Source: Octopus sinensis (lineage: Eukaryota). From it: a stretch of DNA of 64,000 nucleotides. The position numbers and the translations under genes are program-made. The notes beneath the pieces were generated by a model that saw only the letters and a program-made list of their open reading frames with translations, ran no database searches and was not told the origin of the DNA. Positions 10,205 through 64,000 of the stretch are shown here, one piece after another; the first letter of the stretch is position 1, and each line of letters begins with the position of its first letter. The stretch lies in NCBI RefSeq assembly GCF_006345805.1, contig NC_043023.1:7936001-8000000 (forward strand). Reading direction: 5' to 3'.

Positions 10205-13040
10205 TGTTGTTTAACCCTCGGTCAATCCTGATTCAGTAGACCTATGGTCAAAGATGTTCCAGCTGTGACCATTCCATCTTTCATTCAGACATAGTTTATC
10301 TAAGACTACATTATCTAATGTACAGTATAGCAATTAGTGTAAAACTATGATCAAAGACGTTCCAGCTGTGACCATCCCATCTTTTATTCAGACATGGTGT
10401 ATCTTGAACTACAGTTTAGCAATTAGTGTAAGTGGCTTTAAGTGTTGTTTAACCTCATACCAGTTCTTACCAAGTATGATCAAAGACGTTCCAGCTGTGA
10501 CCATCCCATCTTTGATTCAGACACAGTGTATCTGGGACTACATTATCTGGTGTGTTTTTAATCTTTTGAAATTGTTGTTTAGCCCCAGGTCAGCTCTGAT
10601 CCAGCAGATCTATGATCAAAGACGTTCCATTTGTGACCATCCCATCTTTTATTCAGACATGGTGTATCTTGGACTACATAATCCAAAGTACAGTATAGCA
10701 ATTAGTGTAAGTGGCTTTAAGTGTTGTTTAACCTCATACCAGTTCTTACCCAGTAAACCTATGATCAAAGACGTTCCAGCTGTGACCATCCCATCTTTTA
10801 TTCAGACATAGTGTATCTGGGACTACATTATCCAAAGTACAGTATAGCAATTAGTGTAAGTGGCTTTAAGTGTTGTTTAACCTCATACCAGTTCTTACCC
10901 AGTAAACCTATGATCAAAGACATTCCAGCTGTGACCATCCCATCTTTTATTCAGACATGGTGTATCTAGGACTATATAATCCAAAGTACAGTATAGCAAT
11001 TAGTGTAAGTGGCTTTAAGTGTTGTTTAACCTCATACCAGTTCTTACCCAGTAGACCTATGATCAAAGACGTTCCAGCTGTGACCATCCCATCTTTTATT
11101 CAGACATGGTGTATCTTGGACTACATTATCCAAAGTACAGTATAGCAATTAGTGTAAGTGGCTTTAAGTATTGTTTAACCTCATACCAGTTCTTACCCAG
11201 TAAACCTATGATCAAAGACGTTCCAGCTGTGACCATCCCATCTTTTATTCAGACATAGTGTATCTGGGACTACATTATCCAAAGTACAGTATAGCAATTA
11301 GTGTAAGTGGCTTTAAGTGTTGTTTAACCTCATACCAGTTCTTACCCAGTAAACCTATGATCAAAGACATTCCAGCTGTGACCATCCCATCTTTTATTCA
11401 GACATGGTGTATCTAGGACTATATAATCCAAAGTACAGTATAGCAATTAGTGTAAGTGGCTTTAAGTGTTGTTTAACCTCATACCAGTTCTTACCCAGTA
11501 GACCTATGATCAAAGACGTTCCAGCTGTGACCATCCCATCTTTTATTCAGACATGGTGTATCTTGGACTACATTATCCAAAGTACAGTATAGCAATTAGT
11601 GTAAGTGGCTTTAAGTATTGTTTAACCTCATACCAGTTCTTACCCAGTAAACCTATGATCAAAGACGTTCCAGCTGTGACCATCCCATCTTTTATTCAGA
11701 CATAGTGTATCTTGGACTACATAATCCAAAGTACAGTATAGCAATTAGTGTAAGTGGCTTTAAGTGTTGTTTAACCTCATACCAGTTCTTACCCAGTAAA
11801 CCTATGATCAAAGACATTCCAGCTGTGACCATCCCATCTTTTATTCAGACATGGTGTATCTAGGACTATATAATCCAAAGTACAGTATAGCAATTAGTGT
11901 AAGTGGCTTTAAGTGTTGTTTAACCTCATACCAGTTCTTACCCAGTAGACCTATGATCAAAGACGTTCCAGCTGTGACCATCCCATCTTTTATTCAGACA
12001 TGGTGTATCTTGGACTACATTATCCAAAGTACAGTATAGCAATTAGTGTAAGTGGCTTTAAGTATTGTTTAACCTCATACCAGTTCTTACCCAGTAAACC
12101 TATGATCAAAGACGTTCCAGCTGTGACCATCCCATCTTTTATTCAGACATAGTGTATCTGGGACTACATTATCCAAAGTACAGTATAGCAATTAGTGTAA
12201 GTGGCTTTAAGTGTTGTTTAACCTCATACCAGTTCTTACCCAGTAAACCTATGATCAAAGACGTTCCAGCTGTGACCATCCCATCTTTTATCAGACATGG
12301 TGTATCTAGGACTACATTATCCAAAGTACAGTATAGCAATTAGTGTAAGTGGCTTTAAGTATTGTTTAACCTCATACCAGTTCTTACCCAGTAAACCTAT
12401 GATCAAAGACGTTCCAGCTGTGACCATCCCATCTTTTATTCAGACATGGTGTATCTTGGACTACATTATCCAAAGTACAGTATAGCAATTAGTGTAAGTG
12501 GCTTTAAGTGTTGTTTAACCTCATACCAGTTCTTACCCAGTAAACCTATGATCAAAGACGTTCCAGCTGTGACCATCCCATCTTTTATTCAGACATGGTG
12601 TATCTTGGACTACATTATCCAAAGTACAGTATAGCAATTAGTGTAAGTGGCTTTAAGTGTTGTTTAACCTCATACCAGTTCTTACCCAGTAAACCTATGA
12701 TCAAAGACGTTCCAGCTGTGACCATCCCATCTTTTATCAGACATGGTGTATCTAGGACTACATTATCCAAAGTACAGTATAGCAATTAGTGTAAGTGGCT
12801 TTAAGTGTTGTTTAACCTCATACCAGTTCTTACCCAGTAAACCTATGATCAAAGACGTTCCAGCTGTGACCATCCCATCTTTTATTCAGACATGGTGTAT
12901 CTAGGACTACATAATCTAAAGTACAGTATAGCAATTAGTGTAAGTGGCTTTAAGTGTTGTTTAACCTCATACCAGTTCTTACCCAGTAAATCTATGATCG
13001 AAGACGTTCCAGCTGTGACCATCCCATCTTTTATTCAAAC
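10205..13040. repeat. 149-bp satellite (~16 homogeneous units from ~10610, degenerate precursors before that) with a 447-bp (3-mer) higher-order repeat
   Basis: Unit CCTATGATCAAAGACGTTCCAGCTGTGACC...CCCAGTAAA; identical variant ORFs at 10957, 11404 and 11851 give the 447-bp period. Confidence 0.95.
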
Positions 13041-18189: not shown

Positions 18190-18353
18190 TGTCTATTCAA
18201 TGTTTAGCTAGCCTTAACTGCAGAAAGCAGTTTAATACACCAATATGACTTTTGCTGAGGAACATCATGTTTGAAACTATTTCCTCTTGAGACATACCAA
18301 GTTTATTGAAGCAACATGACTTGCAGATAATGCCAATTCTACATTTTGGTAGA

Positions 18354-21300
18354 TACTCTTTACTCTTTTACTTGTTTCAGTTATTTGACTGCGGTCATGC
18401 TGGAGCACTGCCTTTAGTCGAGCAAATTGACCCCAGGACTTAAATAATGATAATACTCTCTCTTTTACTTGTTTCAGTCATTTGACTGCTGTCATGCTGG
18501 AGCACTGCCTTTAGTCGAGCAAATTGACCCCAGGACTTAAATAATGATAATACTCTCTCTTTTACTTGTTTCAGTCATTTGACTGCGGTCATGCTGGAGC
18601 ACTGCCTTTAGTCGAGCAAATTGTCCTCAGGACTTAAATAATGATAATACTCTCTCTTTTACTTGTTTCAGTCATTTGACTGCGGCCATGCTGGAGCACT
18701 GCCTTTAGTTGAGCAAATTGACCCCAGGACTTAAATAATGATAATACTCTCTCTTTTACTTGTTTCAGTCATATGACTGCGGTCATGCTGGAGCACTGCC
18801 TTTAGTCGAGCAAATTGTCCTCAGGACTTAAATAATAATACTCTCTCTTTTACTTGTTTCAGTCATTTGACTGCGGCCATGCTGGAGCACTGCCTTTAGT
18901 TGAGCAAATTGACCCCAGGACTTAAATAATGATAATACTCTCTCTTTTACTTGTTTCAGTCATTTGACTGCGGTCATGCTGGAGCACTGCCATTAGTCGA
19001 GCAAATTGTCCTCAGGACTTAAATAATGATAATACTCTCTCTTTTACTTGTTTCAGTCATTTGACAGCGGTCATGCTGGAGCACTGCCTTTAGTCGAGCA
19101 AATTGTCCTCAGGACTTAAATAATGATAATACTCTCTCTTTTACTTGTTTCAGTCATTTGACTGCGGTCATGCTGGAGCACTGCCTTTAGTTGAGCAAAT
19201 TGTCCTCAGGACTTAAATAATGATAATACTCTCTCTTTTACTTGTTTCAGTCATTTGACTGCGGCCATGCTGGAGCACTGCCTTTAGTTGAGCAAATTGA
19301 CCCCAGGACTTAAATAATGATAATACTCTCTCTTTTACTTGTTTCAGTCATTTGACTGCGGTCATGCTGGAGCACTGCCATTAGTCGAGCAAATTGTCCT
19401 CAGGACTTAAATAATGATAATACTCTCTCTTTTACTTGTTTCAGTCATTTGACAGCGGTCATGCTGGAGCACTGCCTTTAGTCGAGCAAATTGTCCTCAG
19501 GACTTAAATAATGATAATACTCTCTCTTTTACTTGTTTCAGTCATTTGACAGCGGTCATGCTGGAGCACTGCCTTTAGTTGAGCAAATTGACCCCAGGAC
19601 TTAAATAATGATAATACTCTCTCTTTTACTTGTTTCAGTCATTTGACTGCGGTCATGCTGGAGCACTGCCATTAGTCGAGCAAATTGTCCTCAGGACTTA
19701 AATAATGATAATACTCTCTCTTTTACTTGTTTCAGTCATTTGACAGCGGTCATGCTGGAGCACTGCCTTTAGTCGAGCAAATTGTCCTCAGGACTTAAAT
19801 AATGATAATACTCTCTCTTTTACTTGTTTCAGTCATTTGACTGCGGTCATGCTGGAGCACTGCCTTTAGTTGAGCAAATTGTCCTCAGGACTTAAATAAT
19901 GATAATACTCTCTCTTTTACTTGTTTCAGTTATTTGACAGCGGTCATGCTGGAGCACTGCCATTAGTCGAGCAAATTGTCCTCAGGACTTAAATAATGAT
20001 AATACTCTCTCTTTTACTTGTTTCAGTCATTTGACTGCGGTCATGCTGGAGCACTGCCTTTAGTTGAGCAAATTGACCCCAGGACTTAAATAATGATAAT
20101 ACTCTCTCTTTTACTTGTTTCAGTTATTTGACAGCGGTCATGCTGGAGCACTGCCATTAGTCGAGCAAATTGTCCTCAGGACTTAAATAATGATAATACT
20201 CTCTCTTTTACTTGTTTCAGTCATTTGACTGCGGTCATGCTGGAGCACTGCCTTTAGTTGAGCAAATTGTCCTCAGGACTTAAATAATGATAATACTCTC
20301 TCTTTTACTTGTTTCAGTTATTTGACAGCGGTCATGCTGGAGCACTGCCATTAGTCGAGCAAATTGTCCTCAGGACTTAAATAATGATAATACTCTCTCT
20401 TTTACTTGTTTCAGTCATTTGACTGCGGTCATGCTGGAGCACTGCCTTTAGTTGAGCAAATTGACCCCAGGACTTAAATAATGATAATACTCTCTCTTTT
20501 ACTTGTTTCAGTTATTTGACAGCGGTCATGCTGGAGCACTGCCATTAGTCGAGCAAATTGTCCTCAGGACTTAAATAATGATAATACTCTCTCTTTTACT
20601 TGTTTCAGTCATTTGACTGCGGTCATGCTGGAGCACTGCCTTTAGTTGAGCAAATTGACCCCAGGACTTAAATAATGATAATACTCTCTCTTTTACTTGT
20701 TTCAGTTATTTGACAGCGGTCATGCTGGAGCACTGCCATTAGTCGAGCAAATTGTCCTCAGGACTTAAATAATGATAATACTCTCTCTTTTACTTGTTTC
20801 AGTCATTTGACAGCGGCCATGCTGGAGCACTGCCTTTAGTCGAGCAAATTGTCCTCAGGACTTAAAAAAATGATAATACTCTCTCTTTTACTTGTTTCAG
20901 TCATTTGACAGCGGCCATGCTGGAGCACTGCCTTTAGTCGAGCAAATTGTCCTCAGGACTTAAATAATGATAATACTCTCTCTTTTACTGGTTTCAGTCA
21001 TTTGACTGCAGCCATGCTGGAGCACTGCCTTTAGTCGAGCAAATTGTCCTCAGGACTTAAATAATGATAATACTCTCTCTTTTACTTGTTTCAGTCATTT
21101 GACAGCGGCCATGCTGGAGCACTGCCTTTAGTCGAGCAAATTGTCCTCAGGACTTAAATAATGATAATACTCTCTCTTTTACTTGTTTCAGTCATTTGAC
21201 TGCGGCCATGCTGGAGCACTGCCTTTAGTCGAGCAAATTGTCCTCAGGACTTAAATAATGATAATACTCTCTCTTTTACTTGTTTCAGTCATTTGACTGC

Positions 21301-22320
21301 GGTCATGCTGGAGCACTGCCTTTAGTCGAGCAAATTGTCCTCAGGACTTAAATAATGATAATACTCTCTCTTTTACTTGTTTCAGTCATTTGACAGCGGC
21401 CATGCTGGAGCACTGCCTTTAGTCGAGCAAATTGTCCTCAGGACTTAAATAATGATAATACTCTCTCTTTTACTTGTTTCAGTCATTTGACAGCGGCCAT
21501 GCTGGAGCACTGCCTTTAGTCGAGCAAATTGTCCTCAGGACTTAAATAATGATAATACTCTCTCTTTTACTTGTTTCAGTCATTTGACTGCGGTCATGCT
21601 GGAGCACTGCCTTTAGTCGAGCAAATTGTCCTCAGGACTTAAATAATGATAATACTCTCTCTTTTACTTGTTTCAGTCATTTGACTGCGGTCATGCTAGA
21701 GCACTGCCTTTAGTCGAGCAAATTGTCCTCAGGACTTAAATAATGATAATACTCTCTCTTTTACTTGTTTCAGTCATTTGACTGCGGTCATGCTGGAGCA
21801 CCGCCTTTAGTTGAGCAAATTGACTCCAAGACTTAAATAATGAAAATACTCTCTCTTTTACTTGTTTCAGTCATTTGACTGCGGTCATGCTGGAGCACTG
21901 CCTTTAGTCGAGCAAATTGTCCTCAGGACTTAAATAATGATAATACTCTCTCTTTTACTTGTTTCAGTCATTTGACTGCGGTCATGCTAGAGCACTGCCT
22001 TTAGTCGAGCAAATTGTCCTCAGGACTTAAATAATGATAATACTCTCTCTTTTACTTGTTTCAGTCATTTGACTGCGGTCATGCTGGAGCACCGCCTTTA
22101 GTTGAGCAAATTGACTCCAAGACTTAAATAATGAAAATACTCTCTCTTTTACTGGTTTCAGTCATTTGACTGCGGCCATGCTGGAGCACTGCCTTTAGTC
22201 GAGCAAATTGTCCTCAGGACTTAAATAATGATAATACTCTCTCTTTTACTTGTTTCAGTCATTTGACTGCGGCCATGCTGGAGCACCGCCTTTAGTCGAG
22301 CAAATCGACCCCAGGACTTA
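18354..22320. repeat. 97-bp satellite (~41 units) derived from the 3' end of SINE S1
   Basis: Unit TACTCTCTCTTTTACTTGTTTCAGTCATTTGACTGCGGTCATGCTGGAGCACTGCCTTTAGTCGAGCAAATTGTCCTCAGGACTTAAATAATGATAA; the last unit continues into an intact SINE. Confidence 0.95.
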
Positions 22321-32991: not shown

Positions 32992-34329
32992 ATGACAAAT
33001 TATCCTGTCATAATGAATAATTTAACTGAACCTAAAAACCCTGATACAAGAGAGAAACCATATCAATGTGATGTTTGTGGAAAATCATTCTCTCAAAGAA
33101 ATCACTTGACTATTCACAAACGTCTTCATACAGGAGAAAAGCCATATCATTGTAATATCTGTGGTAAAACATTCTCTCGAAGTAATGGCTTAACTAAACA
33201 CCGGCGCGTTCACACAGGAGAGAAACCATATCATTGTGATATCTGTGGTAAATCATTCTCTGAAAATGGCAGTTTAACTAAACACAAACGCATTCACACA
33301 GGAGAGAAACCATATCATTGTGATATCTGTGGTAAGTCATTCTCTCATAGTGGCCACTTGTCTGATCATAAACGCATTCATACAGGGGAAAAACCATATC
33401 ATTGTGATATCTGTGGTAAATCATTCTCTGAAAATGGTAGTTTCACTAAACACAAACATATTCATACAGGAAAGAAGCCATTTCATTGTAAGATCTGCGG
33501 CAAATCATTCATTGAAAGTGGTAACTTGAATAAGCACAAGCGTGTTCATACAGGAGAGAAAACATATCATTGTGATATTTGTGGTGAATCATTTTCTCTA
33601 AATAGCACTTTAACTCAACATAAACGTATTCATACAGGAGAAAAGCCATATCATTGTGATATCTGTGGTAAATCATTCTCTCGTAGTGGCCACTTGTCTA
33701 ATCATAAACGCATTCATACAGGAGAGAAACCTCATCATTGTGATATCTGTGGTAAATCATTCTCTGAAAATGGTACTTTCACTAAACACAAACGCATTCA
33801 TACAGGAAAGAAGCCATTTCATTGTAAGATCTGTGGCAAATCATTCATTGAAAGTGGTAACTTGAATAACCATAAGCGTGTTCATACAGGAGAGAAACCA
33901 CATCATTGTGATATCTGTGGTAAAACATTCTCTCAAAGTAATGGCTTAACTAGACACTGGCGCGTTCACACTGGAGAGAAACCATATCATTGTGATATCT
34001 GTGATAAATCATTCTCTCGTAGTAGCCACTTGTCTGATCATAAACGCATTCATACAGGGGAAAAACCATATCATTGTGATATCTGTGGTAAATCATTCTC
34101 TGAAAATGGTACTTTAACTAAACACAAACGCATTCATACAGGAGAGAAGCCATATCATTGTGATATTTGTGGTAAATCATTTTCTTGTAATCGTGACTTG
34201 ACTGTCCATAAACGTGTTCATACAGGGGAAAAGCCATATCATTGTGATATCTGTGGTAAATCATTCTCTTGCAGTAGTCAATTCTGTAGACATAAACGCA
34301 TTCATAGTGGGGAAAAAACCATATCGTGA
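32992..34329 (+). CDS. C2H2 zinc-finger protein A1, 15 tandem fingers, no recognisable effector domain
   Basis: 15 CxxC-x12-HxxxH units with TGEKP linkers; first in-frame ATG at 32992; ends by a frameshift at the would-be 16th finger. Confidence 0.9.
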
Positions 34330-35465
34330 CATCTGTGGTAAATCATTCTCTGAAAGTGGTGTCCTAACTGAACGCCAGTGCAGGATAGAAACCCTATCAT
34401 TGTGATATTTGTGGTAAATCATTCTCTGAAAGTCGTGTCCTAACTAAACGCCAGTGCAGGATAGAAACCATATCATTGTGATATTTGTGGTAAATCATTC
34501 TCTGAAAGTGGTGTACTAACTAAACACCAGTGCAGGATAGAAACCATATCATTGTGATATCTGTGGTAAATCATTCTCTGAAAGTGGTGTCCTAACTAAA
34601 CGCCAGTGCAGGATAGAAACCATATCATTGTGATATCTGTGGTAAATCATTCTCTGAAAGTGGTGTACTAACTAAACACCAGTGCAGGATAGAAACGATA
34701 TCATTGTGATATCTGTGGTAAATCATTCTCTGAAAGTGGTGTACTAACTAAACACCAGTGCAGGATAGAAACCATATCATTGTGATATCTGTGGTAAATC
34801 ATTCTCTGAAAGTGGTGTCCTAACTAAACACCAGTGCAAGATAGAAACCATATCATTGTGATATCTGTGGTAAATCATTCTCTGAAAGTGGTGTACTAAC
34901 TAAACACCAGTGTGGGATTGAAACATATCATTGTGATATCTGTGGTAAATCATTCTCTGAAAGTCGTGTCCTAACTAAACACCAGTGCGGGATAGAAACC
35001 ATATCATTGTGATATCTGTGGTAAATCATTCTCTGAAAGTGGTGTCCTAACTAAACACCAGTGCGGGATATAAACATATCATTGTGATATCTGTGGTAAA
35101 TCATTCTCTGAAAGTGGTGTACTAACTAAACACCAGTGCAGGATAGAAACCATATCATTGTGATATCTGTGGTAAATCATTCTCTGAAAGTGGTGTCCTA
35201 ACTAAACACCAGTGCAAGATAGAAACCATATCATTGTGATATCTGTGGTAAATCATTCTCTGAAAGTGGTGTACTAACTAAACACCAGTGTGGGATTGAA
35301 ACATATCATTGTGATATCTGTGGTAAATCATTCTCTGAAAGTCGTGTCCTAACTAAACACCAGTGCGGGATTGAAACATATCATTGTGATATCTGTGGTA
35401 AATCATTCTCTGAAAGTGGTGTCCTAACTAAACACCAGTGCAGGATATAAACCATATCATTGTGA
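34319..35465 (+). repeat. 75-76-bp satellite (~15 units) made of one truncated zinc-finger unit
   Basis: Unit ACCATATCATTGTGATATCTGTGGTAAATCATTCTCTGAAAGTGGTGTCCTAACTAAACACCAGTGCAGGATAGAA; CAGG at 34381, 34457, 34533 and onward. Confidence 0.95.
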
Positions 35466-40960: not shown

Positions 40961-42175
40961 CCCAAGACTTACTGTGGAGATCGACTCTGTGTTTCATTTT
41001 TTTCAGTGTGCGTAAAAAATAATAATAATCTTTGGTACTTTAGGCACAAGTCCTGAAATTTGGTAGAAGGGCGTAAGTCGGTTCCATGGACCCCAGTACT
41101 GTTCTTATTTTATCGATCTCGAAAGGCAAAGTCGACCTCGGAGGACTTTGAAGTGTTAGAGTAAAGACGGACGAAATGCTGTTAAGCATTTTGTGCAGTA
41201 TGCTAATGATTCTGCCAGTAAATAATGGAATTCTGTGAACCCTTCGAAGTTACTGCAATCTGTGAAAATGCATAGAAAGATTGAAAAAATATGCTCACTT
41301 GTCTTAGATATAAAAAAAGGGATTTTCCTGAAAGGTATGAGGAAGGTAGGCGTAGGGCCGAACTAAGCCTTGTGAGTGGATTTCATAGACAGAAACTGAA
41401 AGAAGCCCTTTGTATACTTATGTTTGTGTGTCTGTGTTTGTCTCCCCAACATCGCTTGACAACCGATGCTGGTGTGTTTACGTGCCCGTAACATAGCGGT
41501 TCAGAAAAAGCAACCAATAGAATAAGTACTAGGCTTCCAAACAATAAGTCTTTGGTCGATTTGCTTGACTGTAAGGCGGTGCTCCAGCATGGCCACCCTC
41601 AAATGTCTGTAACAAGTAAAAGAGTAAAAGTTGTGTAGGTATGCCAGTCTTTCAACGCTTCAATGAACTCCGACCCTTGCGAACATTGACATTAAACGGA
41701 TGACAGTATTGATGTTGTAAAATTTGCAATGTTGAATTATTATGTCACTTAACTATTCTCTTTATCTCACTGTTTCTTTTCCTCTTTCAGAATATCAGAT
41801 CATGTTGACGTAAAAGAAATCTTGTCGTTCAGATGTGACTTTTGATATTTTTATGGACTTTCGTCAACTAAAGGAAGACAATATATTTATAAGGAGCATT
41901 CATCAATACATCAACCTTTTTATATTGATATAATCTATGACAAACAACAGCAAAATATTTTTCTTGTCTTTACTGTCTGGAATGTAGAGGAGGTGATTGC
42001 TTTACAAGTTTGGATAACTTTACGAAGGACCTGACAGTTTTCACCTGCTAATTCAGATATTAAGTAAGATCACAGCTGAAAAACATAGCATTAAATTATT
42101 CCCTGACAATACTAACTGAACTGAACACAAACATATTCATAGAAAAGAGAAAAAAACAATATCTTTGTGATATAT

Positions 42176-43330
42176 ATGACAAACTATTCTCTCAGAATGA
42201 ATAATTTAATAAAATCTAAAAATCCTGATACCAGAGAGAAACCATATTTCTGTGATGTCTGTGGAAAATCATTCTCTCGAAGAACTCACTTGACCATTCA
42301 CAGATGTATTCATAATGGTGAAAAGCCATATCAGTGTGATATCTGCGGTAATTCATTCTCTTGTAATAGTCAATTGACTAGTCATAAACGTATTCATACT
42401 GGAGAGAAGCCATATCAGTGTGATATTTGTGGTAAATCATTTTCTGAAAATTGCAATTTAACTGTTCATAAGCGTACACATACAGGAGAGAGGCCATATC
42501 ATTGTGATATCTGTGGCAAATCATTCACTGCAAACAGTCATTTTACTAAACACAAGCGCGTTCATACAGGAGAGAAACCCTATCGTTGTGATATTTGTGG
42601 AAAATTATTTTCTCGGAGAAGTCACGTGTCTGTTCACAAACGTACACATACAGGAGAGAAGCCATATCAGTGCAATACCTGTGGTAAATCATTCTCTTGT
42701 AATAGTCAGTTGACTACTCATAGACGTATTCATACTGGTGAAAAACCGTATCCCTGCGATTTATGTGATAAATCATTTTCTCAAATTAATGCTTTAACTA
42801 GACACAAACGTGTTCATAATGGTGAAAAGCCATATCATTGTGATATCTGTGGCAAATCATTCTCTGCAAACGGTAACTTGTCGATTCACAAACGCATTCA
42901 TACTGGGGAAAAACCATATCAGTGTGATATCTGTGGTAAATCATTTTCTGAAAATAGCACTTTCACTAAACACAAGCGTGTTCATACAGGAGAGAAACCA
43001 TATCGTTGTGATATCTGTGGCAAGTCTTTTTCTCTCAATAGCGCTTTCACTAGTCACAAATATATACATATGGGAGAGATGCCATATCATTGTAATACCT
43101 GTGGGAAATCTTTTTCTAAAAATAGCACTTTAACTAGTCACAGACGTATTCACACAGGTGAGAAACCATATCAGTGTGATATCTGTGGTAAATCATTTTC
43201 CGAAAGTGGCAGTGTAACTAGTCACAAGCGTATTCATACAGGAGAGAAGGCATATTATTGTAATATCTGTGGTATATCATTCTCTGCAAACAGTGACTTG
43301 ACTAAACACAAGCACATTCATACAGGATAG
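42176..43330 (+). CDS. C2H2 zinc-finger protein B, 13 fingers
   Basis: 13 C2H2 units; ATG at 42176 in the same context as A1; stops at a GAG>TAG change in a linker. Confidence 0.88.
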   Translation: MTNYSLRMNNLIKSKNPDTREKPYFCDVCGKSFSRRTHLTIHRCIHNGEKPYQCDICGNSFSCNSQLTSHKRIHTGEKPYQCDICGKSFSENCNLTVHKRTHTGERPYHCDICGKSFTANSHFTKHKRVHTGEKPYRCDICGKLFSRRSHVSVHKRTHTGEKPYQCNTCGKSFSCNSQLTTHRRIHTGEKPYPCDLCDKSFSQINALTRHKRVHNGEKPYHCDICGKSFSANGNLSIHKRIHTGEKPYQCDICGKSFSENSTFTKHKRVHTGEKPYRCDICGKSFSLNSAFTSHKYIHMGEMPYHCNTCGKSFSKNSTLTSHRRIHTGEKPYQCDICGKSFSESGSVTSHKRIHTGEKAYYCNICGISFSANSDLTKHKHIHTG

Positions 43331-43950
43331 ATCACTATGGCTTAACTAAACACAAGCGCGTTCACACAGGAGAGAAACCCTATCGTGTTATCTGTGGTAA
43401 ATCCTTCTCTTGTAATAGTCTATTGACTAATCATAAACGTATTCAGACTGGAGAGAAGCCATATCACTGTGATATTTCTGGTAAATCATTTTCTAAAAAT
43501 TACACTTTAACTAGTCACAAACGCATTCATACGGGTGAAAAACCATATCATTGCAATATCTGTGGTAAATCATTTTCTGAAAATAGCCACATGTCTAAAC
43601 ATAAACGTATTCATACAGGAGAGAAGCCATATCATTGTAATAGCTGTGGTAAATCATTTTCTGAAAACACCACTTTAACTATTCACAAATATACTCATAC
43701 AAGCGAGAAGCTATATCATTGTGACATCTGTGCTAAAACATTCTCTTGTAGTAGCCACTTGACTAAACACAAGCGTGTTCATACAGGAAAGGAATTATAT
43801 CCTTGAGATATCTGTGGTTAATCATTCTCTTATAATACTCACTTGACTAATCATAAACATATACATACTGAGGGGAAAAAACCACATCACTGTGATATCT
43901 GTGATGAATAATTCTTTCAAAATGGCCACTTCAGTACACGTGAGTATTCA
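43331..43950 (+). pseudogene. Out-of-frame and decayed continuation of the gene B finger array
   Basis: About 5 fingers in another frame, ending YP-TGA (TGT>TGA), then further broken fingers. Confidence 0.8.
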
Positions 43951-44124
43951 CGCACAACTGTAATTGTACCAGTATTGAAATTTATTACAACACGACAATA
44001 ATAACTTCTATTTTCCTCTGCTAAAAGGCGTTTTTTTTTATCACTTCAAATTTGATGTTATCAACTTCGAACTCATGAATATGAACCTGAATATGGAAAT
44101 ATATCAACACAACAAAGCCTTTGA

Positions 44125-45189
<1,065 letters not shown>

Positions 45190-45699
45190 ATCATTCTCAA
45201 AAGAATCCCACTTCAGTAGACATATGAGTATACACACACATGTGTGACTATATAGGTATTAAAATTTTTTACAACATGCCTAAAATTACTTCTAGTTTTT
45301 CTACAAAGAGACAGGGATTTTTTTTATCTCTTCAAATTTCATGTTATCAACTTCAATTTCATCAATGTCAACATCAAATTCAGCAAAGACTTTGATTTCT
45401 GAAGATGGTCATGCTGGAGTTTTGAGGAATTTGTTATTAGAGAATAAAGAAACGGGAATAATGAATAAAAACTGAATTAAACTGAAATGGGTTTTGGCTA
45501 TTAACTTTCATCATTGTCGTCATTTTCATCATCATCATCCTTCAGCGATAGCTTTTCTTTATATGCTGTCATGGGTGGGACAGTTTGACATGAGCTGGCA
45601 AGCCATAATGCTGCACCAGGTTCCACTCTGATTTGTTTTGGTTGCTTTGGATGTATTCTCCTAATATTAACCAGTTTACATTTTATGCTGTGTGCTTTA

Positions 45700-46075
45700 T
45701 ATCATCATCATCATCACTTAACATCCGCCTTCCAAGCTAGCATGGGTTGGACGATTTGACTTAGGACTGGTGAACGAAATGGCTGCACCAGGCTCCTTTC
45801 TGATCTGGCAGAGTTTCGACAGCTGGATGCTTTTCCTAACGCCAACCACCCCGAGAGTGTAGTGGGTGCTTTTATGTGTCACCGGCATGAGGAACAGTCA
45901 GGCAGTACTGGCAACGGCCACGCTCAAATGGTGTTTTTTACGTGCCACCTGCACAGGAAACAGTCCAGCAGCACTGGCAATGACCTCGCTCGAATAATTT
46001 TCACGTGCCATTGGCACAAGTGCCAGTAAGGCAGTGCTGGTAACGATCATGCTCAAATAGTGCTTTTTACCTGCC
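45700..46075 (-). mobile_element. RTE 3' UTR copy (paralog at ~62170-62560)
   Basis: (CAT)n tail and GTGCC subrepeats. Confidence 0.75.
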
Positions 46076-46413
46076 ACACAGCATATATATTTATAAAATT
46101 GAATAAGGGTAGAAATTGATATTAATCAATTAAAACCAGTGGCCTAGCATATTAAAAAAATCCAAAGATTAAAATATTTTTTACATTCAAAATTTAAAGG
46201 ACTGACCACTAAAAGTTAGTGGTCAGTCATTTGAGTTTTGTATGTAAAAAAAAAAATGTATATATATATATATATGTGGAAAGGCATCCAGCTGTAGAAA
46301 CTCTGCCAGATCAGACTGGAGCCTGGTGCAGGCAATTTAAAAACACAAAACAAACACCACCTCCTTTTCACTTCCCAATCTCTCTCTCTCTCATGACCTC
46401 ACTGTCCCTCCTC

Positions 46414-47036
46414 GGATCTTTTCCTTTTGAACGGCAGACAATTTCTAGTTCACTAAACACTTTAAAACTTCGTATACTGGTAGAATGTGTTTATAAAACA
46501 TCTTTTTCTCTTGGCTTTCTTGAGAAAACTGTAATTTGTTTGTTTAACGTAGTTTAATTTTTCAAATTTTAACCACTGAATCGCCTCTAATTGAGCTCAA
46601 ATTATTTGCTGCGTCTAAAACTGAGACAACATCCTGTCACTAATCCTAACCCTAAATTTTTATTGTTTTTAATTGTTAAATTAATTTAATTGTTATGCGT
46701 GTAAAAAAAAACGTCCATTGCCTTAGTTTTTTTTTACACGCGTAACAATTAAGAAAAAAAAAAATTAGGGTTAAGGTTAGGTTGAGGGTTAGTGACAGGA
46801 TGTTATCTCAGTTTTAGACGCAGCAAATGATTTTAGCTCAAAGGAGGTAATCGATTGGTTAAAATTGCCGAATTGCTCGAAATTTCAGACAAAATATCTT
46901 ACAAACTATAGAATTTTCTCAATAAAACCAAGAGAAAATGATGTTTTATAAACACATTCTACCAGTATACGAAGTTTAAAAGTGTTTAGTTAACTAGAAA
47001 TTGTGTTGACATCTGACATTCAAAAGGAAAAGATTC
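46414..47036. mobile_element. Merlin-like foldback MITE (paralog at 62885-63508)
   Basis: TIRs; exact 8-bp TSD CCCTCCTC at 46406-46413 and 47037-47044. Confidence 0.9.
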
Positions 47037-47069
47037 CCCTCCTCTTTTGCTCTGCTTCTCACTTGAGCT

Positions 47070-47135
47070 ATTGTCGCCCTTTTCAAGCCTAGCCAGGCTC
47101 ATGGAACCGGTTTCCCGGTTTCTGTGACGTATGTG
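47070..47135 (-). mobile_element. 3' part of a SINE S3, cut by a MITE end
   Basis: Reverse complement of the last ~65 bp of 7920-8227, ending CGTATGTG. Confidence 0.8.
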
Positions 47136-48363
47136 GAATCTTTTCCTTTTGAACGGCATTTCAGCAATTTTAACCAATCGATTACCTCCAATCAACTAAA
47201 ATCATTTGCTGCGACTAAAACTGGACTCTCGAAGGAAGGTGAGGCATGTTTTCACTGCACGGTTGCAGTAGTAAAAGAATGCATGTGGAGAACAAGAATG
47301 GAAGGAGTCGCGATAGGATCCTTTGTCTCGGGGCGCCGGCTTGCTCACTTACTTCAGATATCATCTGAAGAGCAAAATGGGGCTGGAAAAGAGGATCTTA
47401 CCACGGGGTGTGTATGAGAAAAGATGGAAGGAAGTGGAAAAAAAGGTGGGTGTCAGAAACCCAACTTAACTATGGAGGGAGGAGAGGAAACAAAAGCTGC
47501 GGGGCCTTATAAATTGCTGGGGTTTAAAACTTCGGTAAGATCGAAAGGTTATGAAATGTTATAAGATTCTATTGGTCACGTAAAGGACAATTTATAGACG
47601 AATTTTTTAATCCAAATGTTATGGAAAATTTTTAAATCGAACCTCTTAATTATTTGTTTTGCATGTATGTCATGTTTTTGTACTTCTATGTAACGATTGT
47701 ATAATCGTAATAAAGAAATTACTAACCTTAAACCTCCCCCCTATCCCTAACCCTAAATTTTTTCTCTTACTTGTTAAATTAATTTAATTCCATTGCTTTA
47801 GTTTTTTTTACACTCGTAACAATTAAATTAATTTAACAATTAAGAAAAAAAAAAATTGGGGGTTAGGGGGGAGGTTTAGGGTGAGTTACAGGATGTTGTC
47901 TCAGTTTTAGATACAGCAAATGATTTTAGCTCAAAAGGGAGCATAGGATTGGTTAAAATTCGAAAAATTAAACTACGTTAAACAAACAAATTACAATTTT
48001 GTTGAGAAAGTCAAGAGAAAAAGGCGTTCTATTTTGACGCATTCTACCAGTATACGAAGTTTTAAAGTGTTTAATTAACTAGAAATTGTGTTGAAAGATC
48101 AAAAGGAAAAGATCCATTTAGTGTTAGGGTTAGGATCAGTGACAGGATGTCTCAGTTTTAGACGCAGCAAATGATTTTAGCTAAATAGAAGCAATCGATT
48201 GATTAAAATTCGAAAAATTAAACTACGTTAAACAAACAAATTACAATTTTCTCAAGAAAGCCAAGAGAAAATAATGTTTTATTGTGACACATTCTACCAA
48301 TATACGAAGTTTTAAAGTGTTTAGTTAACTGTAAATTGTCTGCCGTTCAAAAGGAAAAGATCC
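47136..48363. mobile_element. Compound MITE cluster (right ends at ~48115 and 48363) containing an LTR-element-like insert at ~47223-47720
   Basis: GAATCTTTTCCTTTTGAACGGCA left end; two AAAAGGAAAAGATCC right ends; the insert is absent from the paralog at ~63680. Confidence 0.8.
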
Positions 48364-50432: not shown

Positions 50433-51665
50433 ATGACAAATTATCCTGCCATAATGAATAATTTAACTGAACCTAAAAACCCTGATACAAGAGAGAAACC
50501 ATATTTCTGTGATGTCTGTGGAAAATCATTCTCTCAAAGAACTTACTTGACTATTCACAAGCGTATTCATACAGGAGAGAAACCATATCATTGTGATATC
50601 TGTGGTAAATCATTCTCTGAAAATGGCAATTTAACTCAACATAAACGTATTCATACAGGAGAAAAGCCATATCATTGTGATATCTGTGGAAAATCATTCT
50701 TTCAAAGAACTCACTTGACTATTCACAAGCGTATTCATACAGGAGAGAAGCCATTTCATTGTAATATCTGTGGTGAATCATTTTCTCTAAATGACACTTT
50801 AACTAAACACAAACGTATTCATACCGGAGAAAAGCCATATCATTGTGATATCTGTGGTAAAACATTCTCTCAAAGTTATCACTTGACTAAACACCAGCGC
50901 GTTCACACAGGAGAGAAACCATATCATTGTGATATCTGTGGTAAATCATTTTCTTGTAATAGTCACTTGACTAGACATAAACGCATTCATACAGGAGAGA
51001 AACCTCATCATTGTGATATCTGTGGTGAATCATTCTCTGAAAATGGCAGTTTAACTAAACACATACGCATTCATACAGGAGAGAAGCCATATCATTGTGA
51101 TATCTGTGGCAAATCATTCATTGAAAGTGGTCAATTGAATAAGCACAAGCGTGTTCATACAGGAGAGAAACCATATCATTGTAAGATCTGTGGCAAATCA
51201 TTCATTGAAAGTGGTGACTTGAATAAGCACAAGCGTGTTAATACAGGAGAGAAACCATATCATTGTGATATCTGTGGTAAATCATTCTCTTGTAGTGGCC
51301 ACTTATCTGATCATAAACGCATTCATACAGGGGAAAAACCATATCATTGTGATATCTGTGGTAAATCATTCTCTCGTAATAGTCAATTGGTTAATCACAA
51401 ACGCATTCATACAGGAGAGAAGCCATTTCATTGTAAGATCTGTGGCAAATCATTCATTGAAAGTGGTCAATTGAATAAGCACAAGCGTGTTCATACAGGA
51501 GAGAAACCATATCATTGTGATATCTGTGGTAAATCATTCTCTCGTAGTGACCACTTGTCTGATCATAAACGCATTCATACAGGGGAAAAGCCATATCAGT
51601 GTGATGTCTGTGGTAAATCATTCTCTGAAAGTGGTGTCCTAACTAAACACCAGTGCAGGATATAA
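50433..51665 (+). CDS. C2H2 zinc-finger protein A2, 14 finger units (9th lacks its last His, 14th is truncated)
   Basis: Leader nearly identical to A1; tandem C2H2 units with TGEKP linkers. Confidence 0.9.
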
Positions 51666-57334: not shown

Positions 57335-58059
57335 GGATCTTTTCCTTTTGAACGGCAGTTTTCAGCACAATTCCTAGTTAACTAAACACTTTTAAAGTTC
57401 GTATACTGGTAGAATGTCTTTATAAAACATCATTTTTTCTTGGCTTTATTGAGACAATTCTATATGTTGTAACATATTTCCACTTTAAAATCGAGCATTT
57501 CGGCAATTTTAACCAATCAAATACGTCCATTTGGAGTCAAAACATACCGTGCTGTATGAATATGTCCTCGTTTAAGAAACAGATTGGGTTTATTTACATT
57601 TGCGAAGAAAAAAAGATACCTTTACCCCCACCCCTAACCCTAAGTAAACCTGACCCTAAGATAGATTGAAATGCAATAGATCGATACTAGGGCCATAATA
57701 ATGGGTGACTATTTCAAACGACACCGCTAGAAATAAATCCCATTTTTATTTTGACACATTCTACCAGTACACGAAGTTTAAAACTGTTTAATTAACTAGA
57801 AATTGTGTTGAAAACTGCCGTTCAAAGGGTAAAGATCCATTTAGGGTTAGGGTTAGGATCAGTGACAGGATGTCTCAGTTTTAGAAGCAATCGATTGATT
57901 AAAATTCGAAAAATTAAACTATGTTAAACTTACAAATTACAATTTTCTCAAGAAAGGCAAGAGAAAAAGTTGTTTTATTTTGACACATTCTACCAGTATA
58001 CGAAGTTTAAAAGTGTTTAGTTAACTAGAAATTGTCTGCCGTTCAAAAGGAAAAGATCC
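57335..58059. mobile_element. Compound MITE cluster upstream of A3
   Basis: Left TIR at 57335; right TIRs at 57838 and 58059; ~57745-58059 parallels ~48030-48363. Confidence 0.8.
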
Positions 58060-58595
58060 AATTTATGTGCTGAAAAAGGAGTAGACATTATTAAAATAAT
58101 CTGGTTTAAATTTGGAAAAACTCGATGGTAATTTATTGACAGAATGAGAGAAAGAAAATCACTGGAGCGGAAAAAGGAGTAGACATTATCAAAATAATCT
58201 GGTGAATGGGACAAAGAAAATCACTGGAGCGGAACCAACAAGTTAGCAGAGCCATCTCTAGGAAAATTAAAGAAATACAATCATACGAAGGGAAGTAACT
58301 TCTACAAGATAGTGAACCACTCAATGTTACAGTAATTATTTTTCGAAGCGGGAACCTGACAATAATTAGGAAAATATATTTCTTCGTCTTAATTAATAAC
58401 TTTGAAACTGAAATGTTGATTTGATGCTTATAAAATACTATGACCGACTGATACATGTGATAGAGCTGAAATTAATTAGTAAAGTGAGAATAAAACAGCG
58501 TAATTAATTAGTAAAATGTGAGGAGTCCGATTGAAGAATTCCACATTAATATATGTTATCCTGTTGTTTATGAGGCATTGATAAAACGGTAAGTT
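58060..58595 (+). promoter_or_regulatory. Upstream block of gene A3 (first donor deleted; donor at 58589)
   Basis: Paralog of 48364-48840 with a small internal duplication. Confidence 0.55.
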
Positions 58596-59000
58596 GATAA
58601 AGATTTACTCTAATGTTATATTAATAATAGTAATGATGATGATGATTTCAAAACTGGCCCAGGGTCAGCAATCTTTAATATGAGCGATAAGTCGATTGCA
58701 TGGGTCCCGGTTTTTTCCCGAAAGAGATGAAAGACAAAGTCGATCTCATCCGTATTGGAACTCAGGACTTTCCGCCGAGGTTGGCTTTGTATTTCATTCC
58801 ATTCCGTGTGAAGAAAATAATAATGATAATAGTAATCTTTTGATAATTAAAACAATAACCTTTTGTGCTTTTGACCTGAAAATTGGCGGTAAGGCATAAG
58901 TGAATTACATGGACCCTAGTACTTGATTGCTTCTTATTTTTTCTACCTGGAAATGATGAAAGGGGACCTTGATGTGATTTGAACTTTGAGAGTAATGATG

Positions 59001-59735
59001 CGATCTTTTCACTTTGACCGGCAGATTTTAAAAATAATTTCTATGTAACTAAAACATTTTAAACTTCGTATACTGGTAGAATGTGCTTTAAAAAAATGGT
59101 TTTCTCTTAGCTTTCTTGAGAAAATTCTGCATTTTGTAACATATTTGTTTAATTTCTTGCATTTCGGCAATTTCAACCAATTAATGACGTCTATTGATGT
59201 GAAAACGATTTCTGCCGTAACATTTTCTGGCGGCATTATATGAAAATATCCCTGTTACATATTATATATTCGTTTAAGAAACAGATTGGGTTTATTTATA
59301 TTTCTGAAGAAAAAAAGATACCCTTCCCCCAACCCTAAAACAGATTGAAATGCAATAGATCGATACTAGGATCATAATTATGGGTGGACACTAAATAGGG
59401 AACGGTTTTGTTATCCAGCTCTGTTTACGAGTGACCCCTCAGTTTATGACCACGGGGTATCTTTTTTCTCATAAAAAACAGGGACATTTTCATATGACGC
59501 CGCCAGTATATGTTACAGCAGAAATCGTTTTCACCTCAATAGACGTCTTTGATTAGTTGAAATTGCCGAAATGCAAGAAATTAAACAACAAATATGTTAC
59601 AAAGTACAGAATTTTCTCGATAAAACCAAGAGAAAAAGATGTTTTATAAACACATTCTACCAGTATACGAAGTTTAAAATTTTTTAGTTACATAGAAATT
59701 ATTAAAAAAATCTGCCGGTCCAAGCGAAAAGATCC
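59001..59735. mobile_element. Intronic long-TIR MITE of A3
   Basis: Both TIRs; TSD TAATGATG. Confidence 0.9.
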
Positions 59736-60430
59736 TAATGATGTGCAGGGCACTGACCATGGGCTCATCGTAGACAACATGAAGACAGGGACCTTCACTG
59801 CTGGATAGCTAGCAAGCTGGTCCAGAAAAGGGAATTCCAGTTGGCAACATGAAGTCTTAAATCAAACATTTTTCTGAAAGGTAAAGGTGAAGTGTGTAGT
59901 AAACTTGTGTGGGTATACCAATGTTTCAACACCTCAATGAACTCTGACCCCTGTAAACATTGACATTAAATGGCCGACAGTGTTCATGTTGTAATATTTA
60001 CAATGTTGAATTACTATGTCACTTAACTATCCTCTTTATCTTACTGTTTCTTTTTATATTTCAGAATATCACATCATGTTGACATGAAAGAAATTACTTC
60101 ATTCAGATGTGCCTTTGATATTTCTATCAACTAAAGGAAGATGATATATTTATAAGGAGCATTCATCTATACATCAACGTTTCTATATAAATATAATCTA
60201 TGACAAACAACAGCAGAATATTTTTCTTGTCTGGAATGTAGAGGAGGTGATTGCTTTACAAGTTTGGATAACTTTACAAATGAGTTGACAGTTTTCACCT
60301 GTTGATTTAGGTATTAAGTAAGATCACAGAAGAAAGAAAGATTTACATTAAATTATTCTCTAAAAAAAGTAATGCAAATGGACACAAACATATTCATAGA
60401 AAAGAAAAAAACAATATTATTGTGATATAT

Positions 60431-61261
60431 ATGACAAATTATCCTGTCATAATGAATAATTTAACTGAACCTAAAAACCCTGATACAAGAGAGAAACCAT
60501 ATTTCTGTGATGTCTGTGAAAAATCATTCTCTCGAAGAAATCACTTGACTATTCACAAGTGTATTAATACAGGAGAAATGCCATATCATTGTAATATCTG
60601 TGGTGAATCATTTTCTCTAAATAGCACTTTAACTCGACATAATCGTGTTCATACAGGAGAAAAGCCATTTCATTGTGGTATCTGTGGTAAAACATTCTCT
60701 CAAAGTAATGGCTTAACTAAACACAGGCGCGTTCACACTGGAGAGAAACCATATCATTGTGATATCTGTGGTAAATCATTCTCTTGTAGTAGCCACTTGT
60801 CTGATCATAAATGCATTCATACAGGGGAAAAACCATATCATTGTGATATCTGTGGTAAAGCATTCTCTGAAAATGGCACTTTAACTAAACACAAACGCAT
60901 TCATACAGGAGAGAAGCCATATCATTGTAAGATCTGTGGCAAATCATTCATTGAAAGTGGTAACTTGAATAAGCACAAGCGTGTTCATACAGGAGAGAAA
61001 CCATATCATTGTGATATCTGTGGTGAATCATTTTCTCAAAATAGCCACCTGTCTAAACATAAACGTATTCATACAGGAGAGAAACCTCATCATTGTGATA
61101 TCTGTGGTAAATCATTTTCTGAAAATAGCACTTTAACTAGTCACAAATATACTCATACAAGCGAGAAGCCATATTGTGACATCTGTGCTAAAACATTCTC
61201 TTGTAGTAGCCACTTGACTAAACACAAGCGCGTTCATAGAGGAGAGGAATTATATCCTTGA
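60431..61261 (+). CDS. C2H2 zinc-finger protein A3, 9 finger units; A-type 5' end and B-type 3' end
   Basis: A-type leader and fingers, then NSHLSKH, KYTHTSEK and CAKTFSCSSHLTKH..ELYP* shared with 43560-43806. Confidence 0.88.
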   Translation: MTNYPVIMNNLTEPKNPDTREKPYFCDVCEKSFSRRNHLTIHKCINTGEMPYHCNICGESFSLNSTLTRHNRVHTGEKPFHCGICGKTFSQSNGLTKHRRVHTGEKPYHCDICGKSFSCSSHLSDHKCIHTGEKPYHCDICGKAFSENGTLTKHKRIHTGEKPYHCKICGKSFIESGNLNKHKRVHTGEKPYHCDICGESFSQNSHLSKHKRIHTGEKPHHCDICGKSFSENSTLTSHKYTHTSEKPYCDICAKTFSCSSHLTKHKRVHRGEELYP

Positions 61262-64000
61262 GATATCTGTGGTTAATCATTCTCTTATAATACTCACTTG
61301 ACTAATCATAAACATATTTGTACTGGGGGGAAAAATTCACATCACTGTGATATCTGTGATGAATAATTCTTTCAAAATGGCTACTTCAGTACACATGTGA
61401 GTATTCACACACAACTGTAGCTGTACCAGTATTGAAATTAATTACAACACGACAACAATAACTTCTATTTTTCTCTGCTAAAAGGCGTTTTTTTTTATCT
61501 CTTCAAATTTGATGTTATCAACTTCAAACTCATGAATATGAACCTGAATGCCATGTATATATGGAAATATATCAACACAACAAAGCCTTTGAGGTGTCTT
61601 CACAAGACACCAGCGTATTTATTCAGGGGAGAAGCCATATCAGTGTGATATCTGTGGTACATCATTCTCAAAACAATCTCACTTCAGTACACGTTTGTGT
61701 ATACACACTCAAGTGTGACTATATAAGTTTTAAAATTTGTTACAACATACCTAAAATTACTTCTAGTTTTTCTGCAAAGAGACAGGGATTTTTTTTATCT
61801 CTTCAAATTTCATGGTATAAACTTCAATTTCATCAATGTCAACATCAAATTCAGCAAAGACTTTGATTTCTGAAGATGGTCATGCTGGAGTTTTGTCGAA
61901 TTTGTTATGATAGAATAAAGAAATGGGAATAATGAATAAAAACTGAATTAAACTGAAATTGGTTTTGTCTATTAACTTTCATCATTGTCGTCATTTTCAT
62001 CATCATCATCCTTCAGCGATAGCTTTTCTTTATATGCTGTGATGGGGGGACAGTTTGACATGAGCTGGCAAGCCCTAATGCTGCACTAGGTTCCAGTCTG
62101 ATTTGTTTTGGTTGCTTTGGATGTATTCTCCTAATATTAACCAGTTTACATTTTATGCTGTGTGCTTTATATCATCATCATCATCATCATTTAACATCCG
62201 CCTTCCAAGCTAGCATGGGTTGGACGAGTTGGACGATTTGACTGAGGACTGGTGAATGAAATGGCTGCACCAGGCTCCTTTCTGATCTGGCAGAGTTTGG
62301 ACAGCTTGATGCCCTTCCTAATGCCAACCACTCCAAGAGTGTAGTGGGTCCTTATACATGTCACTGGCATGAGGACTTGTCAGGCTGTACTGGCAACGGC
62401 CACGCTCAAATGGTGATTTTTACGTGCCACCTGCACAGGAAACAGTCCAGCAGCACTGGCAATGACCTCTCTCGAATACTTTTTCACGTGCCATCGGCAT
62501 ATGTGCCAGTAAGACAGTGCTGGTAACGATCATGCTCAAATGGTGCTTTTTACCTGCCACACAGCATATATATATATTTATAAAATTTAATAAGGGTAGA
62601 AATTGATATTAATCAATTAAAACCAATTCATATTAAAAAATCCAAAGATTAAAATATTTTTTACATACAAAATTTAAAGGACTGACCACTAAAAGTTAGT
62701 GGTCAGTCATTTGAGTTTTGTAGGTAAAAAATATATATATATATATATGTGGAAGGGCATCCAGCTGTAGAAACTCTGCCAGATCAGACTGGAGCCTGGT
62801 GCAGGCAATTTAAAAACACAAACCAAACACCACCTTCCTTTCACTTCCCACTCTCTCTCTCTCATGACCTCACTGTCCCTCCTCGGATCTTTTCCTTTTG
62901 AACGGCAGACAATTTCTAGTTAACTAAACACTTTAAAACTTCATATACTGGTAGAATGTGTCAAAATAAAACATTTTTTTCTCTTGGCTTTCTTGAGAAA
63001 ACTGTAATTTGTTTGTTTAACGTAGTTTAATTTTTCGAATTTTAACCACTGAATCGCCTCTAATTGAGCTAAAATCATTTGCTGCGTCTAAAACTGAGAC
63101 AACATCCTGTCACTAATCCTAACCCTCAATTTTTATTGTTTTTAATTGTTAAATTAATTTAATTGTTACGCATGTAAAAAAAAACATCCATTGCTTTAGT
63201 TTTTTTTTAGATGCGTAACAATTAATAAAAAAAAAATTAGGGTTAAGGTTAGGTTGAGGGTTAGTGACAGGATGTTATCTCAGTTTTAGACGCAGCAAAT
63301 GATTTTAGCTCAAAGGAGGTAATCGATTGGTTAAAATTGCCGAATTGCTCGAAATTTCAGACGAAATATCTTACAAACTATAGAATTTTCTCAATAAAAC
63401 CAAGAGAAAATGTTGTTTTATAAACACATTCGACCAGTATACGAAGTTTAAAAGTGTTTAGTTAACTAGAAATTGTGTTGACATCTGGCGTTCAAAAGGA
63501 AAAGATTCCCCATCTCTTTTGCTCTGCTTCTCACTTGAGCTATTGTCGCCCTTTTCAAGTCTAGCCAGGCTCATGGAACCGGTTTCTGTGACGTATGTGG
63601 AATATTTTCCTTTTGAACGGCATTTCAGCAATTTTAACCAATTGATTACCTCCAATCAACTAAAATCATTTGCTGTGACTAAAAGTGAGACAACATCCTG
63701 TCACTAACCTTAAACCTCCCCCCTATCCCTAACCCTAAATTTTTTCTCTTACTTGTTAAATTAATTTAATTCCATTGCTTTAGTTTTTTTTACACTCGTA
63801 ACAATGAAGAAAAAAAAAATTTAGGGTTAGGGGGGAGGTTTAGGGTGAGTTACAGGATGTTGTCTAAGTTTTAGATGCAGCAAATGATTTTAGCTCAAAA
63901 GAGAGCATAGGATTGGTTAAAATTCGAAAAATTAAACTACGTTAAACAAACAAATTACAATTTTGTCGAGAAAGTCAAGAGAAAAAGGCGTTCTATTTTG
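61030..64000 (+). repeat. Segmental duplicate of ~43570-48036 (lacking the 168-bp array and the LTR-like insert)
   Basis: Collinear UTR, RTE, hairpin, MITE and SINE junctions; the last 20 bases match ~48017-48036. Confidence 0.9.

Follow-up and report, generated by a model that had tools for sequence, protein, structure and literature searches.

The gene A3, the last of four tandem C2H2 zinc-finger genes in the stretch of Octopus sinensis DNA analysed here (64,000 nucleotides of contig NC_043023.1, hereafter the window), is very probably a mosaic that is A-type up to the middle of its seventh finger and B-type from finger 8 onward, and a misaligned crossover between non-allelic copies is the likely origin. 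This reading is favoured because one event between two neighbouring types explains the gene. The cluster occupies the right half of the window and consists, in this order and all on the + strand, as are all features described below, of A1 (32992..34329; 445 amino acids, 15 fingers), B (42176..43330; 384 amino acids, 13 fingers), A2 (50433..51665; 410 amino acids, 13 fingers and a broken 14th) and A3 (60431..61261; 276 amino acids, nine C2H2 finger units), with A1 and A2 serving as references for the A type. Each of the four genes is trailed by dead fingers. In the tail of A1 (34325-35460) a broken finger of 75-76 bp forms a minisatellite of 15 copies, while A2 contains a single copy at 51600; dead fingers can amplify without coding. 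An old finger, shifted in frame, seems to have given rise to the short N-terminal leader, since in A3 (region 60410-60490), as at the matching places in A1, A2 and B, the start codon falls within a dead finger that is read in a different frame. Outside the cluster, the window contains two long tandem arrays (10205-13040 and 18353-22320) with periods of about 149 bp and 97 bp, the units of which are 90-97% alike.

An exact-sequence look-up yielded none of the four proteins of the cluster, and three protein searches, performed with the tail, the leader of B and the whole of A3, did not reveal an orthologue of A3. The tail query was dominated by long vertebrate zinc-finger proteins, the B leader gave no candidate, and whole A3 retrieved generic zinc-finger proteins; the highest identity among the 120 matches listed was 64%, to a protein from Octopus vulgaris. 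The A3 reading frame itself shows the features of tandem Krüppel-type C2H2 proteins, i.e., C-x2-C-x12-H-x3-H repeats with a period of 28 amino acids joined by TGEKP-type linkers, and both PF00096 and PF13465 score above cut-off in a Pfam scan. Finger spacing is 84 nt throughout the nine units with one exception of 81 nt. Neither KRAB, SCAN, BTB, ZAD nor any other effector domain is present among the 16 Pfam families matched in the A3 frame, and the same scan gave no match to a PR/SET domain. An in-frame stop lies upstream of 60311. A splice acceptor is predicted at 60041..60064 from a pyrimidine tract with AG at 60063-60064, this sequence being conserved upstream of all four genes, and the predicted finger exon of A3 contains nine ATGs before the start codon. 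All four zinc ligands are kept in eight of the nine fingers, the exception being the degenerate finger 1 (60506..60568), in which the second zinc-binding His is replaced by Asn. Two rare states, Arg at helix position -1 and a replacement of Arg by Cys, link finger 1 of A3 with finger 1 of B; they are either ancestral or mark another short patch of B-type sequence.

The two flanks of A3 group with different paralogues, as they do in Lepore-type fusions. The 5' flank (57744..60430) takes in upstream DNA, the end of the predicted intron and the stretch of the finger exon predicted to be 5' untranslated; its similarity to A2 begins at 48027 and that to A1 at about 30561. In the 605 nt that precede finger 1, the divergence of A3 amounts to 2.5-2.6% with respect to A1 and A2 and to 13.0% with respect to B, and 68 of the 88 variable gap-free columns in the corresponding four-way alignment single out B, while one joins A3 with B. 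A reading made from the sequence alone had described the 5' region as A-type, and this is borne out. On the other side of the fingers, the 3' flank (61262..64000) aligns to B 43804-48036. Between the A3 stop and position 64000, A3 and B disagree at 124 of 2710 aligned bases (4.6%); within about 535 nt of this flank, divergence is 5.6% to B, compared with 20-22% to A1 and A2. Here, 73 of 106 variable columns put A3 with B and none with any A gene, and the tree derived for the 3' flank separates (B,A3) from (A1,A2) with a support of 100/100. Two segments of B are absent from A3, namely a two-finger tandem of 997 nt and a stretch of about 480 nt (B 47225-47717). The former corresponds to a region (44123-45196) of six near-identical 168-bp two-finger units, amounting to 12 perfect fingers; together these form a single open frame, 354 codons long, that has no Met and lies behind a stop. 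The earlier statement that everything up to the window end follows B accordingly does not hold, neither with regard to these two segments nor with regard to an A-type stretch at 61073-61116 that is described below.

Changes private to A3 occur in both flanks, six in 605 nt on the 5' side and 15 columns in the 3' alignment, and A3 is therefore not a copy of these particular A or B loci. The pairwise distances A1-A2, A3-A and A3-B each amount to about 3-5%, and their similarity fits a single burst of duplication. The window end at 64000 corresponds to B 48036, where the B flank runs into the A2 upstream region; from this correspondence, another A-type gene is expected about 2.4 kb past the window end.

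To locate the junction, A3 was analysed with a copying model built on in-register 84-nt units and 46 donor fingers. All four settings printed gave an A-B-A-B pattern. In the best path, the sequence switches from A1 finger 7 to a B tail finger at 61037/61038, back to A at about 61067-61084 and again to B at about 61101-61117. The earlier description of fingers 1-6 as A-type stands for fingers 2-6, which best match A1 or A2 at 58-62 of 63 nt with a mean probability of a B donor of 0.00-0.08, while the ancestry of finger 1 is less clear (0.37). The A-type fingers 2-6 together with the beta-hairpin half of finger 7 extend over 60590..61037. At the opening of finger 7 (60989-61037) two mismatches to A1 finger 7 compare with seven to the B finger, and the recognition helix that follows (61038..61072) is B-type, with one mismatch to the B finger at 43552 and at least seven to any A finger, just as had been proposed. 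The probability of a B donor rises from 0.20 at 61034 to 0.94 at 61040, and the first switch (61037..61039) is thus placed within the codon for helix position -1 of finger 7. This residue is Gln in A3, Leu in A1 finger 7 and Glu in B, and the Gln codon is possibly a hybrid to which A contributed one base and B two, as far as a single site can tell. A finger 7 of entirely A-type origin, i.e., A1 finger 7 joined to finger 8, was considered as well and rejected; it needs four changes, compared with one for a B-type helix.

The sequence downstream of this first switch is not uniformly B-type. A patch comprising the Pro-His-His linker and the hairpin of finger 8 (61073..61116) shows no mismatch to A1 finger 9, one to A2 finger 7, five to the counterpart in B and at least four to any B finger. 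Its 15-nt linker word is present in A1, A2 and A3 only, and the probability of a B donor falls to 0.00-0.11 at 61082-61094. The helix of finger 8 and finger 9 (61117..61258) are again B-type, with three mismatches to B and at least nine to any A finger over 61117-61156, a 3-nt in-frame deletion after 61172 and 62 of 63 nt identical to B in finger 9. When A1 and A2 were painted in the same way as a control, B-like runs covered 1.3% and 4.9% of sites, the longest extending over 26 nt; the B-type runs in A3 measure 30 and 40 nt. All three switches join equal positions of the 84-nt units, such that homologous register and frame are kept. On sequence grounds, three switches within about 80 nt make the junction a mosaic rather than one clean crossover, so that the proposed crossover inside a finger just before the helix survives as the first of these switches. 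One switch followed by later overwriting of B's linker is less likely because A3 and A1 finger 9 are identical throughout the 44 nt of the patch.

The claim that the tail fingers are out of frame in B is likewise confirmed, and in A3 they lie within the open frame. Following finger 13, B carries a lesion (43327..43350) consisting of a net 40-nt deletion, the size of which was counted by hand from the spacing of His residues and fingers, with an immediate TAG at 43328-43330. A separate loss of 3 nt near 43384 takes the frame offset to 43. The out-of-frame tail (43384..43806) comprises two degenerate fingers, then three intact fingers at 43552, 43636 and 43720 that match A3 fingers 7-9 and lie behind the TAG in a different frame, and finally a stop common to both genes (61259 in A3, 43804 in B). 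In A3 this stop codon is followed by two dead fingers (61259..61420) with three stops in common with B 43804-43960.

Sequences from four public runs (X1-X4) were compared with B 41600-44120, and 32 of 51397 pieces are listed. Contigs covering 43286-43418 (X1, X4) and 43286-43476 (X2) span the lesion with no differences, the short side being 41 letters, whereas the listed pieces of X3 do not reach it. The lesion is therefore real, being present in three of four runs, which stem from three studies. Depth, which is no measure of copy number, was for the lesion-bridging contigs of X1 and X4 one quarter to one third of that of the contigs from the 5' part of B and about half that of most tail contigs. 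X2, for which the kind of run is not on record, lacks depth at 41685-41769 in the predicted intron, where the other three runs have depth; no expression is deduced from this gap. All four runs contain a third B-type tail (43793-43903) with A>T at 43863 and a 2-nt gap at 43870, which is neither that of B nor that of A3, and more B-type copies or alleles thus exist. Seven of the eight listed substitution rows for the B tail carry the letter found in A3, and these A3-like letters are probably ancestral states or other alleles. Letters private to A3 were not encountered among the 40 of 158 substitution rows listed.

We propose that an A-type and a B-type copy paired out of place through their 84-bp finger repeats and that the crossover would have fallen downstream of the lesion of B. 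Pairing in finger register would keep the frame of A whatever the frame of the donor, and we infer that the lesion upstream was bypassed in this way. The alternation A-B-A-B may have arisen during that event, through template switching or patchy repair of the heteroduplex, or afterwards, when an A finger converted a short stretch. Given that A lies upstream of B, A3 would represent the deletion product, of the Lepore type, of a duplicated A-B block. Alternatively, at least 3 kb of B tail could have been copied onto an A copy by one-way gene conversion without any crossover, a route that we consider improbable. A tract of at least 2.9 kb is long for gene conversion, and this one reaches B 48036, where the B flank meets the next unit. 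On the other hand, conversion would give an identical product inside the window and both routes are known to yield similar chimeras (PMC4041002); the B-type tract runs to the window end at 64000 and its right end lies beyond, so that a long conversion tract and a crossover are indistinguishable here.

Two further explanations carry still less weight than conversion. A misjoin of two paralogues inside the finger array during assembly is very unlikely, although the public runs contain at most 0.54 of the sampled words of A3, of which the paralogues in the window alone would give 0.37. The changes private to A3 on both sides of the junction speak against an artefact, as do the in-register A-B-A-B patch, which a misjoin would not produce, a window that is devoid of N, and independent contigs that match B letter for letter. 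To the same very small extent we allow for an A3 arrangement that is ancestral, with A1/A2 and B as the recombinants, given that four genes cannot root their own history and that unseen copies exist. That arrangement, which the sequence-only reading had itself named as an alternative that would overturn it, turns out to be unparsimonious, as it needs two events and two unseen parents compared with one event between adjoining types, and A and B are 13-22% apart on both sides, as expected of two old intact lineages.

With regard to the order of events, it is about even whether the lesion in B preceded or followed the capture of its fingers; the evidence is divided, and none of the tests reached significance. 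In one scenario, to which we attach slightly less than an even chance, the tail of the donor was already out of frame and the crossover returned dead fingers to frame, the tail acting as the reservoir that the sequence-only reading had suggested. The changes that B acquired since the split show no lack of amino-acid changes: outside the A-type patch, B has five clear derived changes, four of them changing an amino acid, and one probable one, while A3 has one substitution and one in-frame 3-nt deletion, with one change unpolarised; about four changes per lineage are expected from the flanks according to a hand count. The difference of six vs. two changes is, however, not significant (p = 0.29). 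Also in line with a donor that was already dead, the two B tail fingers adjoining the lesion are without three zinc ligands, a linker Gly that is the same in 39 of 39 coding fingers has become Ser in both A3 and B, and the lesion occurs in runs labelled as two organisms. These runs are, on the other hand, within about 1% of the window, far under the 4.6% split, so that a lesion common to them is no evidence of an origin before that split. Moreover, both genes retain every one of the 12 zinc ligands in the three captured fingers, where they have no stop in common, and it is the next two fingers that contain the three common stops, a distribution with a probability of 0.064 by chance in a hand calculation, or 0.026 if an in-frame insertion is counted too, which is partly an effect of selecting on the finding itself.

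In the other scenario, which we regard as marginally the better supported, the donor was a B-type copy with its frame intact up to the common stop, and B lost its last fingers later. The common stop at 61259/43804 would then be the natural end of a longer ancestral B protein, in agreement with zinc ligands that are whole upstream of it and decay downstream. Lineage-specific finger loss is the most common difference between primate zinc-finger orthologues (PMC3126818), and the third B-type tail in all four runs indicates that other donors exist. Against a late loss, an intact B allele is absent from the rows listed (12 of 20 indel rows and 15 of 968 joints), and the changes in B after the split look unconstrained over the whole period.

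That A3 would use the captured fingers is a prediction from its open frame. Its product would bind DNA in a sequence-specific manner through eight intact fingers whose helices stand in a new order, with expression from the promoter of A. The chance that a frame of 828 nt stays open lies between 0.17 and 0.61. Among 22 differences between A3 and its best-path donors, 19 change an amino acid, compared with a neutral share of about 0.70-0.75, a count that overstates decay because the best-path donors are not the true ancestors; A3, with its broken finger 1, may nevertheless be decaying. Singleton changes in the framework of A3 fingers 1-6 comprise three that alter an amino acid and none that is silent in 378 nt (p = 0.12 vs. 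A1 and A2 combined). In fingers 7-9 there is no amino-acid change and one silent change in 168 nt, and in the B tail three amino-acid changes and no silent one in 171 nt, a weak hint that the captured fingers are being kept in A3.

Fusion genes with discordant flanks that arise from tandem paralogues by unequal crossover or conversion are well established (PMC4041002). Haemoglobins Lepore and anti-Lepore of the beta-globin cluster resemble A3 in combining the 5' flank of one tandem paralogue with the 3' flank of the other (PMC4041002). In A3, unlike in Hb Lepore, pairing would proceed via internal 84-bp repeats, such that the two copies can align in many registers and the DNA-binding modules change in number and order; in addition, the extant parent carries the donor segment out of frame. 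A second parallel is provided by the coding minisatellite of PRDM9, where germline variants give rise to new arrays with hybrid fingers, often through more than one switch among 84-bp units, a multi-switch exchange like that seen in A3 (PMC8600002). The PRDM9 switches take place between alleles of one gene (PMC8600002), whereas A3 joins paralogues that are 13-22% apart and has exchanged the flank as well; furthermore, A3 differs from PRDM9 in having no match to PR/SET or KRAB domains. Zinc-finger gene clusters of mammals undergo duplications, deletions and decay of fingers (PMC5363842, PMC3126818, PMC12575710), and ZNF252 contains rows of whole and degenerate fingers behind a stop (PMC2865497). 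The KRAB-ZNF clusters resemble the present one in their tandem arrangement, block duplications and gain and loss of fingers (PMC5363842, PMC3126818, PMC2865497, PMC12575710), but the frames described here are without KRAB. In the portions of these four papers that bear on finger evolution, a crossover between paralogues that restores out-of-frame fingers is not described. C2H2 expansions in cephalopods, to which A3 likely belongs, likewise consist of multi-finger genes that spread by tandem duplication (PMC12513265), and the predicted binding of octopus zinc-finger proteins has been examined against transposon libraries (PMC10547256).

All ingredients of this case are thus already known, from the Lepore-type fusion to the shuffling of fingers and the dead fingers that follow a stop, and the sole novel element is the possibility that a working gene captured fingers that were already dead. 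In other families, such as chicken immunoglobulins and the surface genes of trypanosomes, conversion is known to recycle pseudogene sequence. Our literature search, with subscription journals mostly outside its scope and absence consequently unproven, returned no title on dead fingers that re-enter frame between paralogues. It is conceivable, though in our estimation rather doubtful, that out-of-frame fingers form a stock of modules re-framed by in-register crossover and that A3 is a working transcription factor born in this way, with finger 7 as a hybrid that bears at position -1 a residue found in neither parent. A single locus is too little to establish dead fingers as raw material from which new binding specificities arise. 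If the donor was already dead when its fingers were captured, the trailing dead fingers of all four genes would constitute such raw material, and phylogenies derived from whole finger arrays would mislead. For the biology of the family, A3 offers a clean and datable case in which what is likely a cephalopod C2H2 cluster makes new finger orders via exchange between paralogues, a route that goes unmentioned in one recent survey of cephalopod C2H2 genes, the main text of which contains no occurrence of 'recombination', 'gene conversion', 'pseudogene' or 'chimer' (PMC12513265).
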